A DNA stretch of 64,000 nucleotides from the NCBI GenBank assembly GCA_000165345.1, contig CM000436.1, positions 1,152,001 to 1,216,000 of the forward strand, given 5' to 3'. Numbering within the stretch: position 1 is the first letter of the stretch; the number at the start of each line of letters is the position of its first letter. Positions 1,944-63,749 of the stretch are shown one piece after another. The position numbers and the translations under genes were made by a program. The notes under the pieces were generated by a model. That model worked only from the letters and a program-made list of their open reading frames with translations, had not been told where the DNA came from and made no database searches.

Positions 1944-2915
1944 ATGATCATAAAAAATAATAATAATGGGTATTTTATTGATAACGTTAATAAAATTTGG
2001 GAGATCCCTATAAATAGTGAGCATATGGACATTTTAAAGGAAATTCCATGGTTTAAATATCTTACTCTACCAATTGAAAGAAATTGGAATGGTATGAAAT
2101 TATTCCTTTGGACCAATGATAATTATTATCTTGCACACACAATCTGCATAATATATGCATTTTTCATATACTTTGGACCCAAAATTATGGAGAAACGAAA
2201 ACCTTTCAAATTGGAAAAACCTTTAAAATATTGGAACTTGTTTTTGGCACTTTTTTCATTTATTGGAACCCTACGTTTAATGCCATATGTTCTAACCAAC
2301 CTCATTAAGTATGGCTTTGTATCATCCATCTGTTCTCCTCCTATTGCTCCACTAACAAAAGGTCCAGCTGGCTTATGGCTCAGCTTATTTATATATTCTA
2401 AATATATTGAATTAATTGATACATTTTTTATTATTGCTAGAAAAAAATCACTTTCTTTTTTACACTGGTTCCATCACCTTACTGTACTCCTTTACACATG
2501 GGATGCTTATGTCTGCTGCCAAACTATTGGAGTCTTTTTTTGCGCCATAAACTACTTTGTTCATTCAATTATGTACTTTTACTATTATTTATCCTCTTGT
2601 GGTAAGAGACCAAAATGGGGTATGATCATCACAATCTTACAAATTGTACAAATGATTATTGGTACAATTCTAACCACTTCAGGTATGTATTACTCTTATA
2701 AACACCCATTTGCCAATGTATTTCCAGTTGAATATCTAAGTCAACCTCTCAAAGTTGGTTGTCACTTTATCAGAACCAACGGTGTTTTTGCCTGCCTTAT
2801 GTACATCTCCTACTTTGCTTTATTCTTTGACTTCTTTATCAAAAGATATATCACAAAAGGTACACCTCTTGCTGAATGGGTAACTGCCAATAAAAAACCA
2901 ACTAAGCGCGATTAG
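1944..2915 (+). CDS. ELO-family (GNS1/SUR4) long-chain fatty acid elongase
   Basis: 323-aa ORF with an ATG start. It has multiple TM helices and the ELO histidine box FLHWFHHLTVLLYTW (HxxHH). The C-terminus carries a basic di-lysine-like tail, NKKPTKRD. Confidence 0.85.
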   Translation: MIIKNNNNGYFIDNVNKIWEIPINSEHMDILKEIPWFKYLTLPIERNWNGMKLFLWTNDNYYLAHTICIIYAFFIYFGPKIMEKRKPFKLEKPLKYWNLFLALFSFIGTLRLMPYVLTNLIKYGFVSSICSPPIAPLTKGPAGLWLSLFIYSKYIELIDTFFIIARKKSLSFLHWFHHLTVLLYTWDAYVCCQTIGVFFCAINYFVHSIMYFYYYLSSCGKRPKWGMIITILQIVQMIIGTILTTSGMYYSYKHPFANVFPVEYLSQPLKVGCHFIRTNGVFACLMYISYFALFFDFFIKRYITKGTPLAEWVTANKKPTKRD

Positions 2916-23986: not shown

Positions 23987-24068
23987 GGCAAAGTGCTCGA
24001 GTGGTTAAGAGGTCAGTCTCGAAAACTGATAGCGTTTCGCTGCGCAGGTTCGAATCCTGCCTTTGTCG
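23987..24068 (+). tRNA. tRNA-Ser(CGA): tRNA-Ser, anticodon CGA, 82 nt, intronless, long variable arm
   Basis: Folded by hand. Acceptor GGCAAAG/CTTTGTC (one G-U), 3-bp D-stem CTC/GAG. Anticodon stem TCAGT/ACTGA with loop CTCGAAA, giving anticodon CGA. 14-nt variable arm AGCG..CGC. T-arm GCAGG-TTCGAAT-CCTGC. Discriminator G. Confidence 0.9.
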
Positions 24069-53100: not shown

Positions 53101-54528
53101 ATGTTTATTAAAAGGAATATATTGAGTTTAGCAACATTATTAGTTGGAGCTTCAGCAAGTGGTATATTTAGACAATTTGGTGATAAAATAACCCAACAAG
53201 CAAATCCATGTCATATTACATGTCCAAGAGAATATGCTCCAGTATGTGCAACAGATGCAGAAACTTATGAGAATTTATGTTTATTTGGAGTAGCAAAATG
53301 TATGAATAGAGATCTTCAATTGGTAGCAAATGTAACATGTCCAGATTTATTAATACATTTAACACATTTAGCACAGAAAGGTATGGTAGAAAGTATGAAT
53401 GCAATAGATTCAACATATCAAACATTTGGTAATATAACAAAGGGAACAGCAGAAATGATATCATCTACTTTAGATTCTGTACCATTAATAAAATTACCAA
53501 ACTTTAATCTTCCAATATTTGGAATACCACCAATTCCACCACAAGTTTTGAAAACGACTTCAACTTCAACTTCAACTTCAACTACTACTACTACTACTAC
53601 ATCAACATCAACTTCAACAACTGAAAATACAAGTACAAATTTTGAATCAGATTCTTCATCTGAATCAACATCAGAATACACATCCACATCCACATCCACG
53701 TCATCGACTATTACATCAGATATTGAGCCTACATCTACATCTACATCCACATCTGCATCTACATCTACATCTACATCTACATCTGCTTCTACATCTGCTT
53801 TGCCAACATCTACAACTACCATTGCTACTTCAACAAAATCTTCAAGAAAATTAATAGAGATTCCAAGTTTAGAACAAGGAGCAAGTGGAGTAATAGCACA
53901 GGTAACTAAGACTATACAATCAGCACTAAGTGGATCTGGAGTTAGTGGTTCATCACCAACAACATCATCATCAGCAGCATTGGGATTAAATAATTTGGAT
54001 GATGCAAGAACAACAATTGAGGGTATGGTAAAGACTATTCCATATACGCCAGGAAAGAATTCTAGTAATATATTATTAGTAGATGGAGTTTCACAAATAG
54101 TAAAATTACCAAATGGAAAAGAAAGTAAGAATTTACTTTCAAATATTACATCAACAGAATCATTTAATTTACCCAATATTACAAATTTAACAAATGGTTC
54201 ATTAAGTAATATTACAGAAAAAATTACAAGTAGAAATATTACATTAAATGGTGAAAATTTAATATCTAATCCAAATTTTCAATCTTTGAGAAATTTAACT
54301 TCATCAACATTGGATAATAATAATATTAGTAATACGACTGCTATTAATGGCACAAATAGTGGTTTAAATATTAATGGTACTTCTTTATTAACAGATTCTA
54401 AATTTAATAAATTGGTTAATGGTAGATTTAATACAACTGATATTTTTAAAGGAATTGGAAATACAATAAATAATATTACAAAGAATATTAAGGAGCAAGT
54501 AGAAAATGAAATTGAAAATATTAATTAA
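53101..54528 (+). CDS. secreted Kazal-domain protein with a long Thr/Ser-rich mucin-like region and an N-glycan-rich C-terminus
   Basis: 475-aa ORF with an ATG start. The signal peptide is MFIKRNILSLATLLVGASASG. The Kazal-type module is CPREYAPVCATDAETYENLCLFGVAKCMNRDLQLVANVTC. This is followed by TSTSTSTSTTTTTTTSTSTS...TSTSTSASTSTSTSTSAS repeats encoded by (ACTTCA)n and (ACATCT)n at 53556..53830, then about 20 NxS/T sequons. Confidence 0.7.
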   Translation: MFIKRNILSLATLLVGASASGIFRQFGDKITQQANPCHITCPREYAPVCATDAETYENLCLFGVAKCMNRDLQLVANVTCPDLLIHLTHLAQKGMVESMNAIDSTYQTFGNITKGTAEMISSTLDSVPLIKLPNFNLPIFGIPPIPPQVLKTTSTSTSTSTTTTTTTSTSTSTTENTSTNFESDSSSESTSEYTSTSTSTSSTITSDIEPTSTSTSTSASTSTSTSTSASTSALPTSTTTIATSTKSSRKLIEIPSLEQGASGVIAQVTKTIQSALSGSGVSGSSPTTSSSAALGLNNLDDARTTIEGMVKTIPYTPGKNSSNILLVDGVSQIVKLPNGKESKNLLSNITSTESFNLPNITNLTNGSLSNITEKITSRNITLNGENLISNPNFQSLRNLTSSTLDNNNISNTTAINGTNSGLNINGTSLLTDSKFNKLVNGRFNTTDIFKGIGNTINNITKNIKEQVENEIENIN

Positions 54529-54936
54529 ATCTTTAATATTAAGATTTAGTTAATATTTTTTTTCCTCTCTTTTTCTTCTTCTTCATGAATCATAATTATC
54601 ATCCAAACCAAATATTCAGAGTAGAAATAGCCCATAGATTATGAGAAAAGAAAGAGTAATTCCTTATTTTCTTCTTTTTCTTCAACTTAATGTTATTATT
54701 GGAATTTTTATTAAAAAAAAAAAATTAATAATAATATCAAAGGAGAATCACTTTCTTTCTTTCTCTAATCATTTTGTGACTTTAAAAGAAAAAAGGATTT
54801 CAACAACCAGTTCTACCACTTTATTTATAACAAACAACCATTTCCACCACATAATCTTCAATAAAAATTTGCAAAAACCAAAACAACCTTGAGTAACATA
54901 ATTACGACAACTTCTACTAATGATCTTATTAATAAC

Positions 54937-55140
54937 TATTACTACTACTGTTACTACTGATACTACTACTACCACTACTACTACCACTACCATCACTAAC
55001 AATACAACTTCTAAAATAAACACTAATATTGTTATTGCTAATATTTATAACTAATCACTATTACTGCTATTAATACTAGTATTAATATTATTATTAGTAT
55101 TATTATTACCACTACTACAATGGCATTACAATATTGCTAC
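54937..55140. repeat. degenerate ACT/TAC/ATT trinucleotide-rich minisatellite (mirror ORFs are poly-Thr on plus and poly-Val on minus)
   Basis: Seen directly. Track ORFs 54641..54892 and 54769..55023 overlap it and are probably artefacts. Confidence 0.6.
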
Positions 55141-55209
55141 ATTTAAGTTTATATGAATGTTGTAATAATCAATTGGTTCTAAATCAAAATGGTGAAAAAC
55201 TAATGTATA

Positions 55210-55278
55210 AACAGACAGACAAATAAAGCAGACAGATGAATAAACAGAGAAATGAATAAGCAAAAAGATGAATAAATC
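55210..55278. repeat. 4 copies of a roughly 16-nt purine-rich tandem repeat (CAGACAGACAAATAAAG / CAGACAGATGAATAAA / CAGAGAAATGAATAAG / CAAAAAGATGAATAAAT)
   Basis: Seen directly. Confidence 0.6.
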
Positions 55279-56243
55279 TACAAAAATAAGAAAGAAAGGA
55301 AAAAAAAAAAGAAAAGGAAGAAATAGACTAAAGAATACTGAGAAAAGTTCTTTATTGATAAGGAATGGGAGGGAAAGAGAAAAAAAAAGTTAAGTTTTCC
55401 AATATGTTGAAATAATCTTTTTCTCTTATTAACTAAGTAATAAGATTTAAATAAAAAAAAATATATTATAATGAACTCGTATAATTGTTTAATCTAAATA
55501 AATTAATTAAATCTTTTATTGATATATCCCAACTTAAAAGAAATATATAAACTTTCTTAAATATACATCAAATAATATTTGGATATTAACAATAATTGAC
55601 TAGAAGAAAAGCAATTGGTGATTATTTTCTTTTTTCTTTTCCACATCTTTATTTATTATTTATCTTTAATATTAATGAGTATAATGGGGAAAAAAAAGAG
55701 AAATTTACACAAAATATTAAACAAATACAGGAATAGATAAGTTATGATTTCTTAATATTTGAATTATAAAATAAGAATAAATCAATTAATTAAAAACAAT
55801 AATATAACATTATTAACAAACGTTGTAANNNNTNTNTTAATGTTTTTCTATCATATTTATTTATTTTCCTTTTAGAAAATTTATTAATATAAAAAAATAA
55901 TAATAATAATAATAATAATATTAAAAGTTATTAGAAAATAAGTCAAATTTANTTTTGTAAATTTAATTGTATTATTTGTAATATAATTATAACAAAAAAG
56001 TGTTTTTTTTTTTAAATAAATATATTAATAGCATGTACTATTAATTATTACTAATTTATAAAGATTACAATGAGTAATTGTCAAAAATAAAGCATAAAAA
56101 TTAATAAAAATAATAAGCTTTTGTTTATATATATTATTTAAGTTAATTGATACTAAATGAAACTAAAATTTATTTAGAAAAAAAAAGAAGAAAATTCAAT
56201 TTATAAATTATATTCAAATAGTAGATAATAATTAATATTATAT

Positions 56244-56286
<43 letters not shown>

Positions 56287-56304
56287 AAATATTGTATTAA
56301 TTTT

Positions 56305-56331
56305 TTTGGCGGGAAAAGAATTTGCATGCAA
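56305..56331. promoter_or_regulatory. TTTGGCGGGAAAAGAATTTGCATGCAA, a canonical E2F site plus GCATGC, about 190 bp 3' of the NCoR-like gene stop
   Basis: Seen directly. No annotated gene lies downstream within 1.8 kb. See findings. Confidence 0.35.
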
Positions 56332-56519
56332 TAGCCATTTAAATTCCTTACACGTAATAAATAATTAAATAATTTTTTTAAAGTTAAAGGGAAAAGAGTG
56401 GAAAAAAAAAGATTGTTAATAAATATAGTTATTTAGANAGAAAGTTATGAAAAGTTATTAATATAAATAGATAGAAAATGATTAATTCTTTTCTTCGTGT
56501 ATTTATTAATTAAATTTAT

Positions 56520-59500
56520 TCACTCCTTTTTAGGAATTTCTTGATTTAAATTCACATTCTTTAAACTATTATTATTGTTTGTTGGATCTTGAATTGGATT
56601 TCCAATTGTTGTCCCTCCTTTATTTATTCCATTAAAGCCAACTAATGGGTTTCCAATATGTTGTTGAAATTGTTGTTGCTGAAGTTGTTGCTGTTGTTGT
56701 TGTTGTATTATTAAACTCAACATATCTCCTCCAATGGAATTTCTATTTAATTGTTGTCGACTTTGAAAATTAAAAGGGATTGTATTTGCTAGAAACTGTT
56801 GTTGCAGTTGTNGCAATTGCAGTTGTTGTTGCTGCTGTTGCAGTTGTTGTAGTTGTTGAAGTTGTTGTTGTTGTTGTTGTTGTTGCTGTTGTTGTTGTTG
56901 TTGCTGCTGCTGCTGCTGCTGCTGTTGCTTTAACTGTAGCTGCAATTGAAGTTGAAGTTGTAGCTGTTGATTGTGTTGTTGCTGCAGTTGCTGTTGTTGT
57001 TGATGTTGTTGCTGTTGTTGCTGTTGCAATAACTGTTGTTGGAACAAATGTTGAAGTTGGAAAAAGTTAGGAAATGCTTGGGGTTGTGTTTGCAAAGAGG
57101 TTTGTGAAAAAAGTCCATTTCCAACCCCGAATTCATTTCCAACTCCAGCTTCAATTCCAGCTCCAGTTCCAATTCCAGCTCCAGTTACAACTCCAACTCC
57201 ACCACTTCCAGCTCCAGCATCAATTCCAGTTCCAGCTCCTACACCAACTCCAGATCCAACTCCAGCTCCTACGCCAACTCCTACACCAACTCCAGATCCT
57301 GCTCCAGCTCCAGATCCAGCTCCAGCTCCAGCTCCAGCTCCAGCTCCAGCTCCAGCTCCAGCTCCAGCTCCAGCTCCAGCTCCAGCTCCAGCTCCTACTG
57401 AATTCAAAGTTGCAGAATCAAATATTCCTGGAACTATAACACCTTTATTTGAGCTATTTTCTGTTTTTGAATTAAATCCTCCTTCTCCGCCTTCTGAGGC
57501 TCCCATTGTTATTTTACTTGAAATTTCAACAACCTCACATGACTTCTCTCCGTCTACTATCGCTTCCTTAGCTAAAACCATACTCTTACTATTATCGTAA
57601 TCCCCTACTTTAGTAGAATCTCCAACTAATACCTCATTCTTGTCCTCATTCTTCTCCTTCTCTGTCTCTTTCTGCTCTTCTTTTCCATATTGATCATTTA
57701 CTGATATTCCTTCTACTAATCCAGAAACCATCTCTGCTTTCAAATCCGTAATCAGAGTTTCAGATTCAGGTTTGAGCTTAGTTTCAGGTCCAGGTTCAGA
57801 CTCAAGATTGGGTTCAGTTTCAGGATTAAGATCCCGCTCTTTTAACTCTGTAGAATCTTTAGTTGTTGAATTATTTACAGAAGTTGGATTAGGACTTGTA
57901 GTGATACCTGCAGTATAATTACTACCGCCAACAATTCCACCACTTCCCAATAATGTGTTCATTATCATCTGATTTAAAGGATTTGCCAATCCTCCAACAA
58001 ATCCAATCTGTTGAGAATTTCTCATTTGTTCTTGTAATGTTTGCTGAAAAACCAACTGTTGTTGTAAGTATTGATTCATTAATATACTATTCCAAGTCTG
58101 ATTGTGATTGCTCTGGGAATTAATATTTGTTGAATCACTTGTACTATTATTAACACTGCTTGTTGTATTAACACCATTATTCACAGGATTTATAGATATG
58201 GGATTCTCTGTTGCTCCTACTGCTCCTGATACCGATCCTGATTCTCCTATTCCTGTTCCTCCCACTCCTCCTGCTACATTATGCTGTCCAAGATTAGACC
58301 CCAAGCCTCCAAATAATAATCCAGAAGGATACCCCACTCCTGTTGCTCCTGTTGCTCCTGTTGCTCCTGTTGCTGCTCCTACTCCTACCCCTGCTCCTCC
58401 TACTCCTGTTACTCCCATTCCTATCCCTCCTCCTCCTCCTAATCCCAACCCTCCTATACCAGGAATTCCCCCCTTAGCCATTCCAGGTATACCAGATATG
58501 CCTCCTATACGAGGTATTCCTCCTAAATTTTGTAGTCCTCCCATACTTTGTAGTCCACCCAAACCCTGAAATCCTCCTATACCTTGTAGTCCTCCAAGCC
58601 CTGACAAATCTTGAATGCCATTACCGCTCCCACTACAACTATTACTACTGCTACTGTTATTAATATCATTACCACCACTTCCTCCTACATCACCAACAGC
58701 ATTTTCCACTCCCATTCCAGAATAAATACCTGTATTTGATACTTGGCAAGGCTTTAATGGATTCACTTGAGATGTAACATTTCCACATGAATTAATAATT
58801 GATGGAAAACCACCTGATAAAATTGGTATAGAATTATCATTAACTTTAGGTAATTGTAATCCAAAATTTACGTTACCCATATTCATATTTAATAATGAAT
58901 TTGGCTGTAATTGACTTAGTCCAGGAATTGAATTATCTGAAATAAAGTAGTTTGCTAGAATTCCATTATTATTTAATAATAGTAAGTTATTAATATTATT
59001 GGATGATGATGATGTTTCTATTTTACCATTTAATACTTTATTATTACTATTTCCTTTCATATACTCATCCATCAATTTTGGTATCTTTCTATTCATACTC
59101 TCTTCATTATATTCATTTAAACCAATATTATTACCATTTCCACTACTCATTAGTATATCATTACTGTTCGTATCACTAACTTCCTTGCTATTTAACAATC
59201 CTACTACTCCTGTTACACCTGATCCTGGCCCTGATCCTGGCCCTGATCCTGATCCTGACCCTGATCCTGACCCTCTCTTACGTCTTCCTTGCCTTGGCTT
59301 CTCATTCATTGATGATTTTTGTAATACCGAATTACTATTTATATTATTAACTATTTCCAAATTTCTTAATTTACCTTTACCTGTCTCTGTTGATGGAACA
59401 TTTGAGACATAATTTGAAATATCTGAAGATAATGAATAATCTTGCTTATTTGATGGAGATATTGTCAAAGAATGTAATAAAGAATTACTACCATTTATAA

Positions 59501-62500
59501 CTCCTCCTAATTCTCCCATTATATTATCCATAAACTGATTCAAATATAAATATACCGATACCTTTAAATCATTTATTGATATATTTGGATCCAAATATGA
59601 CATATTCAAAGATTCTTGATCTTTATATTCTTTATGATCAAATATTATTGGTATATTACTTGGTAATTGTATATTTGAATTTCCTTGCTTATTTTGAATA
59701 TTTATATTATAAAAAGGAGAAATTAATGCATCCATATCTTTTGGTAATATATATCCATTACTTAAGTTATCCATTGTATATCTTTTATTTGTATTTAAAT
59801 GAGAATCATCATGTTTTCTAAATAAAAACTTATATATTAAATCATCATATAATCCCCATTCTTCTTTCTTTTCTATTCCTATCATATTATTATTCATTTC
59901 TCTTCTTTCAATTATTGGAAGCCTAAATAATGTTGATGGTCTATTTAACATTCTTCTTAAAGATGATCTTGAAAGAAGTCTCTCTGTATACATATTCATA
60001 TTACCAAGACTACTAAAACATGATCTCTTATAAAAATCTCTCATAAAATGATTATATGTTGATTCAATTGTTAAAGTATTCAATATTTCATCAATTAAAA
60101 GCTCCCTATATGAATGTTTCTTATATTTAATAATCTCCATACATCTTATAGTACTAATAAGACTATTCCAAAATATACTCTTATCTTTTTTTATTTGTAT
60201 ATTATCATCATCTTGAGAATCTTTAATAATTCTTTGAATATTTTCTTCTGTATCATCTTTTGTATGAATTGAAGATGATATTATTTCATCATCATTCATT
60301 ATATTATGATCTTTTTGATCATAATGATGATTCATATTAATTTGATTCTTATTATGATTTCCTTTAAAATAATATACTAATCTTAAAATCCTTTTAAATC
60401 CTAATGTATATTTATATTTGTAATAAAAATCTATACAATCTTTAATAGTCTTATATTCCATAAATGATGCTATCCTTCTGAAATCTTTTGGATACATTAA
60501 ATACTTTTCTATAAACATTCTTATTTCTGAATAAGTCCATATAGTATTTCTATTCCTTTCTTGATCAGTTGGATTGATTACTTGATTATTCTTATTAATA
60601 TAAATAAATTTCACAGGTTTAATAGGATCTTGATCATAAACATTAAATTCAATTTCTGCAGGAAATCTAAAAATACTATTCTCAAACCATAGTGGAGATG
60701 GACCTATAAAACTGGATGATGAACTAGTCATTTGCATCCATTCTCTTTGAGCTTGTTTTTGATGTACTATTCCTTTTTCTCTTTCTCTATTTTTTTGTAT
60801 ATTCAATCCAATATCTTTTTCTTTATCTTTTTCTTTATTAGAAATAGGTATTTCTTTATAATTTTTAGTTACCCCGATACCTAATGTTGTAGTACCAGAA
60901 GAACCAAATGATAAAGAATTACAACTATTAGAATGAGAAGGATTAGATTGTGATGTAGAAGTGATATTATTTCCTGTTAAAATATTTCCAATTGATGGTT
61001 GAGAATCATTTTTCATAACTGATGCAAATTCATTAGAATAATTTGTAGATCCAGGTACCCCTCCAGTTTTAACCAAATTAAGAAATGATAAAGATGCATT
61101 GCCTGTATTTGATGACATAGAATGATCTTCATTTCCAATAATATTATTGGAAGAATGATAATTATCATTAGAATTTCTTGTCCTTCTTGATCTTGTAGAA
61201 TTTAATTCAAAGGTACCGACATCAATTCCTCCAGTTCCTCTTTTTCTTCTTGTATTACTAACAGTATTAAGTGTTTCATTTGTTGAATTAGAGATATTAT
61301 TTATATCATGAGTATTCCGATTAATACTTTCAGAATGATTTTGTTCAATATTTCCAATATGATCACTTCCTTTTAATATACCTCCTTTTGTTTGAATATT
61401 ATATAACTTTTGATTATTATTAGTATTAGTAGAATCAATATTATCACCAAATACAAGAGCTCTATTAGAATTAGTAAAAAGTATTGGTGTTTGAATATTT
61501 TGTAAAGACATCATATAAGTTTTTGATATATCATTATTTCTACATTCAGGTAGAAGATCTAGAAATTTATGATATACTTTAAACCTAAAATCATGTTTAA
61601 AATAACCAATAGGTAAAGGTACCAATTGATCAGGATGATCAATTGCTCTTAAAGGTAAACAACCCCAAGTAAAATTCAGATCTCTTTCACTATTTAACAT
61701 TTCATTATATGCAACATATCTTTTATAACGATGATATATAAAATGTAAAGATCTTTTAATATTTGATATTTCATTTCTAATCATGATCTTTTTTCTTTTA
61801 ATATGTTTTCTTACTCTTTGAATTTTTGAAGAATAACCAAGTAAATTAATAGGATGATAAAAATCACCATTAATTGGTCTTAAAATATCTTTAATAACTT
61901 TTAAAGCAAACTTATTATGATCTTGTATTGGATAACAAAGACTAGTATAGTATGGCATTAAAGATACATATTCTGGTATACCAAGTATAACTTCAATATA
62001 ATCTTGTATTTCTCTATCAATAACTAAATCATCCTGATAGATTTTAATAATTTCAAGAGTATGATCATCTTTACTTTCTTCTAAAATAGATTCTAATAAC
62101 TTAATTTCATCCATTAAATAGTTAAATGTTGATATAAGAAATGGAATATGATCACCAGTATTTTTTTGATGATTATCGATAGTAATGATCTCATTAATTT
62201 TATCCTTTAAAACTTTTAAAGAATTTAATTTCTCAATATTTTCTTCTTTGAGTTTTTGTAAAGATTCTGTAATTCCAAAATCATTATTAATATGAGAAGA
62301 AGAATTAGAATCTTGAGAATTTTTATTTTCATTAATAAATCGTATTCGGTACCTTTTTAGATCTTTATTATTTGTATCAATTTCACTATTAATAAATTGA
62401 TCCAACTCTTTAATTCTACCAGGCAAAACACAAATCTTAACTTTTTGTCTTGCAGTTCTAAAAGCCTGACTTGTATTTTCCATAACTGAAGCCAAGTAAT

Positions 62501-63749
62501 TATAATTATGATCATTTTCTTCTAAATTATTATTAATTTCAGAGTTTCCCGCCTTTTCTGTAAAGAATGAGCAAGAATCTGAAATATTGTTAGAATTAGA
62601 AGAATCAATATAAAGATTTTCGAATGCCGTATTGGTATGTTCATCTTCAACTTTTTTTAGTGTGAGATTAGATAGATTGAAATCTGGAGTTAGAAATTCA
62701 ATAGCTCCTAGTAGTCCTTGTTTGTAATTAATAGACTTTTTGTGATTATAATCAGTAAGTCCAGCACAAGATGATGATTCATAAGAGGTACCTAAAGTAA
62801 TTTGAGAAGTTTCTTGAGATCTTTTAACAAGATTAACTTGATAAATATGATATATTTTACATAAATCATTCAAGAATTGACCATTTTCTCCATAAGTTGA
62901 GCTATTAACTGAATTAATCTTTTTAATGTTTCTAATATTTCCCAAGCTTAAATTTAAGTATGGACCTCTTCTATGATCTTGTGCTATTGGTAGTTGTTGT
63001 AAATTGTAATTCTCCAGTTCTCTACCTCCTTTATCATATAAATCTTTCAAGTAATATTTACAAGCTAAAGTAAAAATATCCAAAGGAGTTCTTGATCTTA
63101 ATATCTTTTCTGTTTCATCTATCTCAGTCTTTTCCTTGGAGCTAGTGTTCTTCCTTCTAAAGTATCTTCTATGAGTTTTCTTCTTTTTTGTGTTTATAGC
63201 TTTCAAATCTTTTGTAGAAGAGGAGCATGAATTATTAATATTACTATTGTTATTAGTTGCATTTAAACCAGAACTTGAGCCTAAATTAGCTCCTGAATCA
63301 AAATCTAGAGCCTCACATATCTCTTCTCCTTCTCCATCATCTAAATCATCATCCATAATAGAAGTTGTTAAACAATTTTCATTAAAGTTAATACTATTTG
63401 CCTCGATATTTCTTCTTTCTTGTTCCTTTTTTAATTGTTCCAACTCTAAATTAATTCTCAGTATCTCATCCTGAAGGTATAATACTAAATTATGATCCTT
63501 TAAAATATTTACATTACCAAAAATCATCTTATCTTGAATCTTCTCTTCATCTATTATTGGCTCATATAGAAATTCATCCTTGAATAAATTATCTTTCAAT
63601 CCTCCACCTTCACTAAAATCAGAAACTTGCTTCAAATATTTATCCACTAATTTCTCAAATTCATCAGCTTCCTTAACATTTTTAACTTTTCTACATCCAT
63701 TAATTATGCTTCCCAGCAAAATCTCGTTATATTCAGTTTCTTTATCCAT
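56520..63749 (-). CDS. NCoR/SMRT-like SANT-domain transcriptional co-repressor (2409 aa) with extreme low-complexity expansion
   Basis: ATG at 63749. The SANT domain with its preceding block ([30 protein letters not shown]...[43 protein letters not shown]) is collinear with NCoR1 (LSVIPPMMFDAEQRRVKFINMNGL...WTDHEKEIFKDKFIQHPKNFGLIASYLERKSVPDCVLYYY). It has an N-terminal coiled coil ([18 protein letters not shown]). The upstream block [49 protein letters not shown] matches the NCoR region KVYHENIKTNQVMRKKLILFFKRRNHARKQREQKICQRYDQL. The C-terminal third is poly-Q, (GA)n, GGLQ/GGIPG Gly-rich and PD/PG repeats. One N at 56812 gives an X. Confidence 0.7.
   Translation of the reverse strand: [2409 protein letters not shown]
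57131..57397. repeat. imperfect to perfect (GCTCCA)n hexamer array (perfect core about 57313..57396, at least 13 copies) encoding the (GA)n/(GS)/(GV) dipeptide run of the NCoR-like protein; adjacent (CAA/CAG)n poly-Q tract at 56795..57050
   Basis: Seen directly. Mirror ORFs 56780..57070+, 57074..57439+ and 58108..58569+ are artefacts of these repeats. Confidence 0.85.

Follow-up and report, generated by a model that had tools for sequence, protein, structure and literature searches.

A conserved Kazal domain and a labile mucin-like tract in a female-transcribed Cryptosporidium parvum protein, a candidate trypsin-type inhibitor of the zygote or oocyst

The window analyzed here is a 64,000-nucleotide stretch of Cryptosporidium parvum DNA (NCBI GenBank assembly GCA_000165345.1, contig CM000436.1, positions 1,152,001 to 1,216,000 of the forward strand), AT-rich at ~22-35% GC, and the gene under study within it is cgd8_4830, whose product combines a predicted signal peptide, a single Kazal protease-inhibitor domain, a mucin-like Thr/Ser tract and an Asn-rich tail. 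The gene is an uninterrupted ATG-to-TAA open reading frame (ORF) of 475 amino acids (aa) plus stop, situated at ~1.19 Mb on a chromosome of ~1.34-1.38 Mb (Table 1). Its full-length translation is 100% identical to EAK89616.1 of C. parvum Iowa II, which NCBI names 'extracellular protein with a signal peptide, kazal domain and mucin like low complexity repeats'; QOY40251.1/CPATCC_004358 is a near-identical protein, and the C. hominis counterpart is CHUDEA8_4830. The architecture is not new and has been in databases since the 2004 genome annotation. What is added by this analysis is the assignment of the P1 residue, the pattern of conservation and the link to female-specific expression.

The locus tag of this ORF is cgd8_4830, based on three independent lines. 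First, the variable-number tandem repeat (VNTR) marker MM19, or 'cgd8_4840_6355', has published primers that match exactly at 57412-57434(-) and 57266-57283(+), within the neighboring minus-strand ORF. Offset 6355 from the start of that ORF is position 57395, the exact edge of a period-6 array, and because both the primers and the offset fall there, the neighbor is cgd8_4840. Second, global identity to the C. hominis UdeA01 protein is 447/475 (0.941) and the Nei-Gojobori dN against C. hominis is 0.0081, in agreement with the cgd8_4830 row of a published table that lists identity 0.941, an identical dN of 0.0081 and dN/dS of 0.084 (our own whole-gene dN/dS is 0.15). Third, the product name in a published table agrees. 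A second C. parvum gene, cgd8_3550, was considered and ruled out as this gene; it is the Kazal-like inhibitor of Isaza et al. 2015, with an identity of 0.761 and dN/dS of 1.38 against C. hominis, versus the ~94% identity found here. It lies on the same chromosome outside the window, is annotated as a Kazal-like serine protease inhibitor and is fast-evolving, whereas purifying selection acts on cgd8_4830. In a 2025 paper, C. parvum is credited with just 'a Kazal'. A literature search found no functional study of cgd8_4830 and no functional use of it beyond one mRNA vaccine pool; neither the gene nor a Kazal domain is mentioned in the main text of the Ifeonu 2016 vaccine-candidate catalogue, and the gene is not mentioned in the supplements of a long non-coding RNA paper.

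An earlier reading of these letters, made from the sequence alone and referred to here as the original prediction, had proposed a secreted protein with a single Kazal domain. The presence of one domain with the Kazal cysteine pattern is upheld by profile search, with Pfam Kazal_1 (E=1e-8, 35.5 bits against a cutoff of 21) and Kazal_2 (26.9 bits against a cutoff of 22.8) both matching aa 36-70, and the Pfam scan of the protein returned no domain other than Kazal. The boundary required correction: the domain had been started at C41 with five cysteines, and its real start is C37, giving six (37, 41, 49, 60, 67 and 80). These are all of the cysteines in the protein and all are invariant in orthologs, and their spacing of 3-7-10-6-12 fits the pattern C-x(n)-C-x7-C-x10-C-x(2-7)-C-x(n)-C. 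A phmmer search of the PDB retrieved essentially only Kazal inhibitors (ovomucoid, PEC-60, infestin, dipetalin, rhodniin and PSTI), and a profile built from the orthologs matched PEC-60 at 2.3e-5, 2n17 at 1.4e-4 and infestin at 2.4e-4.

The same alignments allow for prediction of the reactive loop. The core motif Y45-A-P-V-C49-A-T-D-A-E-T-Y56-E-N58-L-C60 gives a gap-free alignment with ovomucoid, PEC-60 and infestin, and it includes the loop-supporting residues Tyr56 and Asn58. In the HMMER alignment, C41-P42-R43-E44-Y45 stands opposite C-T-L18-E-Y of the ovomucoid third domain and C-F-R-N-Y of infestin. Because Arg43 aligns with Leu18, the P1 residue of the ovomucoid third domain, Arg43 is assigned as P1. 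By this alignment the reactive loop is canonical, with P3 Cys41, P2 Pro, P1 Arg43, P1' Glu and P2' Tyr, and the P1'-P2' pair is the same as in the ovomucoid third domain. An Arg at P1 predicts trypsin-type specificity if the domain acts by the standard mechanism. An exhaustive HMMER search of 1.84 billion representatives supplied a set of neighbors for comparison, namely 762 six-Cys domains in the best 146 non-orthologous matches. The 3-7-10-6-12 spacing is the commonest in this set (90 domains) and Arg is the commonest P1 residue (180/762), and on these comparisons the module counts as an orthodox Kazal of the 'non-classical' type. Its closest relatives outside the genus score at most 51 bits, versus 124-131 bits inside Cryptosporidium, and the nearest outside domains belong to a chytrid, the oomycete Lagenidium, a sea cucumber and shrimps rather than to other apicomplexans. 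A word-indexed search with the N-terminal module, which gave 15 candidates and one new ortholog, was superseded by the exhaustive search.

An N77-V-T sequon (53329-53337) is also found within the Kazal domain, three residues before the last Cys, and it is invariant in all orthologs. An N-glycan at N77 would face away from the reactive loop and may be relevant to orientation or stability of the domain.

The remainder of the original architecture is likewise borne out, from the signal peptide to the mucin-like array, the sequon-rich C-terminus and the lack of a membrane anchor. The N-terminus consists of a basic MFIKR, a 12-residue hydrophobic core (NILSLATLLVGA) that provides the highest 19-residue Kyte-Doolittle (KD-19) window in the whole protein (1.30), and A17-S18-A19, which agrees with the -3/-1 cleavage rule; this call is heuristic, from hydropathy and anatomy, and public annotations likewise give a signal peptide. 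Just after the predicted cleavage site, G-I-F-R (aa 21-24, 53161-53172) is invariant from C. parvum to C. muris while its flanks vary; it may be a processing, sorting or pro-peptide signal, and no match to a known motif was recognized for it. The Thr/Ser tract spans 97 aa at 77% S+T (42% T and 35% S), with short acidic patches interrupting it. It contains two hexanucleotide arrays whose codon pairs differ (ACT-TCA versus TCT-ACA), and this difference suggests that the two arrays expanded independently. The post-Kazal segment is probably helical and then Pro-rich, with its helices appearing at low confidence only in AlphaFold2 (AF2) models. Asn makes up 22% of the last 145 residues. Of the 17 N-x-S/T sequons in the protein, 13 are of the N-x-T form, and 13 lie in this tail, compared with 7.3 +/- 2.1 there after composition-preserving shuffling (P about 0.01). 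This C-terminus is hydrophilic and probably helical, and the only part of the AF2 model with a predicted local distance difference test (pLDDT) score above 60 is the helix at 445-474. No transmembrane segment was found, the highest KD-19 value beyond the signal peptide being 1.06, nor any hydrophobic end of the glycosylphosphatidylinositol (GPI) type, since the last 30 aa are hydrophilic with a mean of -0.72. The two long ORFs that the original prediction had called spurious are present and arise from reading the (ACN-TCN)n repeats in other frames; conservation and annotation both lie with the sense frame.

Table 1 Features of cgd8_4830 and its surroundings, in coordinates of the window (CDS, coding sequence; MLVA, multilocus VNTR analysis).
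Feature	Position	Strand	Basis
Complete single-exon CDS, cgd8_4830	53101..54528	+	Translation 100% identical to EAK89616.1
Predicted signal peptide, aa 1-19	53101..53157	+	n/h/c-region anatomy, top hydropathy window, database names
Kazal domain, C37 to C80	53209..53340	+	Pfam Kazal_1 and Kazal_2 above gathering thresholds
Predicted P1 codon, Arg43	53227..53229	+	Alignment with ovomucoid Leu18 and infestin Arg; invariant in 17 sequences
Post-Kazal segment, aa 81-151	53341..53553	+	70% mean conservation across orthologs; genus-restricted
Mucin-like Thr/Ser tract, aa 152-248, length-polymorphic	53554..53844	+	Maximal-scoring segment; indels versus C. hominis
Hexanucleotide array (ACTTCA)x10.3, codes (Thr-Ser)n	53557..53618	+	Tandem Repeats Finder
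Hexanucleotide array (CTACAT)x11.3, codes (Ser-Thr)n with codons other than those of the 53557 array	53729..53796	+	Tandem Repeats Finder
Middle segment, aa 249-330, RKLIEIPSLEQGASGV...	53845..54090	+	63% mean conservation; genus-restricted
Asn-rich tail, aa 331-475	54091..54525	+	Sequon enrichment, hydropathy
Spurious antisense ORF, 252 aa	53418..54176	-	(VD)n/(VE)n runs opposite the Thr/Ser arrays
Spurious off-frame ORF, 70 aa	53642..53854	+	(HL)n/(HP)n, frame-shifted reading of hexamer repeats
cgd8_4840, 2409-aa Myb-domain ORF	56520..63749	-	MM19 primer matches
(TCCAGC)x42 period-6 array, the MM19/cgd8_4840_6355 marker of the C. parvum MLVA typing scheme	57138-57395		
tRNA-Ser (anticodon CGA)	23987-24068	+	Sole Rfam/ARAGORN match in the window

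Comparison across the genus separates a conserved head and tail from a labile tract. The ortholog search found the gene across Cryptosporidium from C. hominis to C. muris, including the chipmunk genotype, C. ubiquitum, C. ryanae, C. andersoni, C. serpentis and several further assemblies. In 11 orthologous sequences from C. parvum to C. muris, 32/44 positions between C37 and C80 are invariant, and the P1 Arg is invariant in 17/17 Cryptosporidium sequences. At the canonical contact positions, 8/12 are invariant and the rest vary conservatively (I/V, P/S, A/S and E/L), such that no contact-residue hypervariability is observed among the 17 sequences. Between C. parvum and C. hominis, codons 1-81 carry no substitution, synonymous or non-synonymous, and the middle segment carries zero non-synonymous changes. 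These observations indicate that the Kazal head is under strong purifying selection. In contrast, all 18 indel residues between the two species fall in the Thr/Ser tract, whose length within the genus runs from 6 to 99 aa: C. parvum isolates have 93-99, C. hominis 79-81, other intestinal lineages 61 and 39, and C. ryanae-like and gastric species only 6-18. The tract is also polymorphic within species, with protein lengths of 471, 475 and 477 aa in C. parvum and 450-459 aa in C. hominis. Matches listed outside Cryptosporidium in the exhaustive search cover Kazal positions only (~30-83), and among them there is no homolog of the post-Kazal segment, the middle segment or the Asn-rich tail. Because the tract is labile and short elsewhere while head and tail are conserved, the comparison indicates that the 'mucin' is a recent elaboration in the C. 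parvum/C. hominis lineage upon a conserved Kazal-plus-tail protein. The C. ubiquitum ortholog cubi_03710 (174 aa) has a model that ends inside the Thr/Ser tract even though its contig is 191 kb, and this truncation is probably a gene-model or assembly artifact at the repeat.

When in the life cycle is the gene transcribed? Expression was taken from two public RNA-seq data sets, that of Tandel et al. 2019 on parasites sorted by fluorescence-activated cell sorting (FACS), in log2 counts per million (CPM), and that of Matos et al., in fragments per kilobase per million (FPKM). In the first, sorted asexual parasites give 0.74, 2.29, 0.23 and 2.87 log2 CPM (mean 1.5), of which the first three values lie at the same floor as zero-count genes, whereas sorted females reach a mean of 11.42 from culture and 11.35 from mice, a LogFC of +9.88 or ~940-fold. 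In the second, cgd8_4830 is at ~0 FPKM in oocysts and 16 sporozoite samples and at 0 FPKM in infected cells at 2 h and 24 h, bar one value of 3.0, and it then reaches 512-1229 FPKM in five of five 48 h cultures. This timing (female, 48 h) is the same as that of COWP1. According to Tandel et al. 2019, cultures sexualize after 36 h and COWP1 appears only at 42-48 h, in females; these authors read the female-specific proteins with signal peptides as oocyst-wall machinery, and the serine proteases and subtilases upregulated in females likewise. Transcription of cgd8_4830 is restricted to females or sexual stages. The original prediction had envisaged a virulence factor of the invasive stages, and this proposal is not supported by the expression data: at the mRNA level transcription in those stages is absent, an outcome that the original prediction had itself named as refuting. 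Carry-over of the protein into oocysts is compatible with the absence of mRNA there, and a role in protection from gut proteases is plausible, but at the zygote or oocyst stage.

We hypothesize, with moderate confidence, that cgd8_4830 encodes a glycosylated trypsin-type inhibitor that is produced by macrogamonts and serves the zygote/oocyst compartment, with both its localization and its inhibitory activity being predictions. In this model the signal peptide would be removed and the protein would enter the macrogamont secretory route with other female-specific secreted wall and matrix proteins. Its destination would be the zygote/oocyst compartment, that is, the wall-forming bodies and subsequently the oocyst wall, the inner glycoprotein layer or the intra-oocyst matrix. 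The Arg-P1 loop would make the head a standard-mechanism, tight-binding inhibitor of trypsin-type serine proteases, and the likeliest target would be host luminal trypsin, which every zygote or oocyst would face, those of gastric species included during intestinal passage. The Thr/Ser stalk would be saturated with O-GalNAc by the four GalNAc transferases of the parasite and the tail would carry N-glycans, such that stalk and tail together could act as a rigid spacer or anchor, resistant to proteases, by which the small inhibitor head is kept in a glycoprotein layer. C. parvum GalNAc transferases are reported to nearly saturate the Ser/Thr arrays of oocyst glycoproteins. An oocyst-stage role is favored over a sporozoite-stage role because the head is conserved in the gastric species C. 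muris, C. andersoni and C. serpentis. The sporozoites of gastric species excyst in the stomach and do not meet pancreatic trypsin, and their oocysts still transit the intestine.

Several observations weigh against this model. The AF2 predictions, made from a shallow alignment of 11 ortholog sequences, have a mean pLDDT of 35.5 for the full-length protein and 38.3 for the N-terminal module; because both are too low in confidence to interpret, it is the sequence profiles that point to a Kazal fold with its expected disulfides C1-C5, C2-C4 and C3-C6. Tandel et al. 2019 could not sequence males, and for this reason 'female-specific' might mean 'sexual-stage'. The supplements of the Haserick 2017 oocyst glycoproteomics study contain no entry or glycopeptides for cgd8_4830, an absence that is uninformative because there are no tryptic sites in long Thr/Ser tracts. 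Invariant as they are, the contact residues show no sign of a host-parasite arms race, and such invariance fits a conserved host enzyme (trypsin) and a parasite-encoded target equally well. Lastly, an mRNA vaccine pool of four that included 'cgd8_4830 hypothetical protein' raised fecal IgA and did not reduce oocyst shedding. This failure is weak evidence against the model and is compatible with an internal, non-exposed location of the protein.

A more specific form of the inhibitor model, which we put forward tentatively, is that the protein is a component of the macrogamont wall-forming vesicle and the mature oocyst, and that its Arg-P1 head gates proteolysis in the oocyst, either as a shield against host trypsin or as a latch on a parasite protease. 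As a shield, it would keep host trypsin from the inner glycoprotein layer and the sporozoite tethers up to the arrival of bile and temperature cues. As a latch, it would restrain a serine protease of the parasite responsible for wall maturation or excystation.

The alternative hypothesis that fares best dispenses with the host enzyme altogether and takes the Kazal head to restrain a parasite serine protease of the female or oocyst stage, as a latch on wall maturation or excystation; we regard this as unlikely, though worth serious consideration. Candidate targets would be a subtilisin-like or other wall-protein-processing enzyme, or an excystation-associated serine protease activity. Kazal domains can inhibit subtilisins besides S1 enzymes, as seen for the ovomucoid third domain with subtilisin Carlsberg and for Neospora NcPI-S. 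Kazal inhibitors that face foreign proteases classically show hypervariable contact residues; here the entire domain, contacts included, is near-invariant over species of very different hosts and niches, as would be expected of a co-inherited partner. Moreover, the gene is co-expressed with 'serine proteases and subtilases' upregulated in females, which Tandel et al. 2019 assigned to wall building. However, a P1 Arg with P2 Pro and no basic residue at P2 or P4 is a trypsin-type loop and not one of furin or subtilisin type, and the S1-family enzymes of apicomplexans are DegP/HtrA-like and not typical Arg-specific targets.

Two further proposals are improbable. In one, the Kazal module is non-inhibitory and structural or adhesive, of the agrin, follistatin or SPARC type, and the protein is a glycoprotein block of the oocyst or zygote coat. 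The even conservation across the domain, which is not centered on the reactive loop, would fit this proposal, as would the 'agrin' annotation of some of the nearest outside matches and the low-complexity, glycan-bearing character of the remainder of the protein. Against it, the C-P-R-E-Y loop is textbook-canonical, with its ovomucoid-like P1'-P2' pair and both Tyr56 and Asn58, and the closest solved relatives are all genuine inhibitors. The other is the virulence factor of the original prediction, a zoite surface or secreted protein that neutralizes gut proteases and uses its mucin tract for attachment in the manner of gp900 and gp40. The architecture does resemble sporozoite mucins joined to an inhibitor, a macrogamont-made protein could in principle reach the oocyst and coat sporozoites, and the gene was picked as a vaccine-candidate mRNA. 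Nevertheless, this proposal is largely refuted at the RNA level, given that transcripts are absent not only from oocysts and sporozoites but also from the asexual 2 h and 24 h samples, the latter the time of merozoite production, at which gp40/15 (cgd6_1080) is by contrast strongly expressed in the same FPKM table; in addition, the head is no less conserved in gastric species, in which sporozoites do not encounter pancreatic trypsin, the long mucin tract is unconserved (6-18 aa in several species), and the vaccine pool gave no protection.

Known systems provide partial parallels for this protein. TgPI-1 and TgPI-2 of Toxoplasma gondii and NcPI-S of Neospora are, like the predicted cgd8_4830 product, secreted apicomplexan Kazal inhibitors with short C1-C2 spacing, and some of their domains are directed at trypsin. 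TgPI-1, a Kazal inhibitor of the non-classical type, resides in a transmissible cyst wall, and parasites lacking it become more sensitive to trypsin and chymotrypsin; by analogy, it may serve as a precedent for a cyst-wall inhibitor that protects against these enzymes. TgPI-1 is a dense-granule protein of all stages with four Kazal domains and neither mucin tract nor Asn-rich tail, unlike cgd8_4830 with its one Kazal domain, long glycosylation-type body and female-restricted transcripts. With respect to the nearest outside domains, the cgd8_4830 Kazal shows no special sequence affinity to coccidian Kazals over non-apicomplexan ones. Infestin, rhodniin, dipetalogastin, the four-domain inhibitors of shrimp, and EPI1 and EPI10 of Phytophthora share its Cys-spacing class and an Arg or Lys P1. 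These non-classical Kazals of invertebrates and oomycetes are extracellular inhibitors at the host interface, usually as tandem multi-Kazal proteins without a mucin or N-glycan body.

The parallels within Cryptosporidium are of a different kind. The proteins gp900, gp40/15, Gp20 and CpMuc4/5 share with cgd8_4830 a signal peptide and dense Ser/Thr arrays, and arrays of this kind are saturated by the O-GalNAc transferases of C. parvum; the array in cgd8_4830 is length-polymorphic. These mucin-like proteins are zoite-stage products without a protease-inhibitor domain. Unlike the gp900/gp40 class, cgd8_4830 is female-specific with no zoite expression, and its tract is dispensable in several species. 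The COWP family is built of Cys-rich type I/II repeat arrays, which cgd8_4830 lacks, and the two share only the female, 48 h timing seen for COWP1.

The surroundings of the gene are of a mostly housekeeping character. The cgd8_4840 ORF contains many other coding micro- and minisatellites in addition to the MM19 array. The convergent spacer between cgd8_4830 and cgd8_4840 (54529-56519) is ~2 kb, which is long for a compact genome, and contains many AT-rich microsatellites. Against C. hominis it is ~95% identical with indels at repeats, no conserved element stood out in that comparison, and its first ~400 bp, at 94-98% identity, may be 3' untranslated region. Elsewhere in the window, the ORF at 1944-2915(+) and other large ORFs include housekeeping genes for an ELO-family fatty-acid elongase, a WD40 protein, seryl-tRNA synthetase, a DHHC palmitoyltransferase, a DEAD-box helicase, an arginine methyltransferase, CPSF_A/DDB1-like, RIC1-like and FHA/RING proteins, an NIF phosphatase and TAF9. 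No cluster of secreted or female-specific genes around cgd8_4830 was found among the window ORFs.

On these results cgd8_4830 is better considered alongside oocyst formation, environmental and gut resistance, and excystation, which are steps of transmission, than alongside sporozoite invasion, and they identify the sole Cryptosporidium Kazal inhibitor under strong purifying selection as a female-gamete product. They also caution against its use as a sporozoite-surface vaccine antigen, the one mRNA vaccine pool that contained it having failed to protect. Being length-polymorphic, the Thr/Ser tract might also provide an additional typing marker adjoining MM19. If the proposal that the Kazal head gates proteolysis in the oocyst is true, loss of the protein would alter oocyst robustness or the timing of excystation, and hence transmission, and cgd8_4830 would become the first protease inhibitor to be assigned a place in the oocyst biology of Cryptosporidium.

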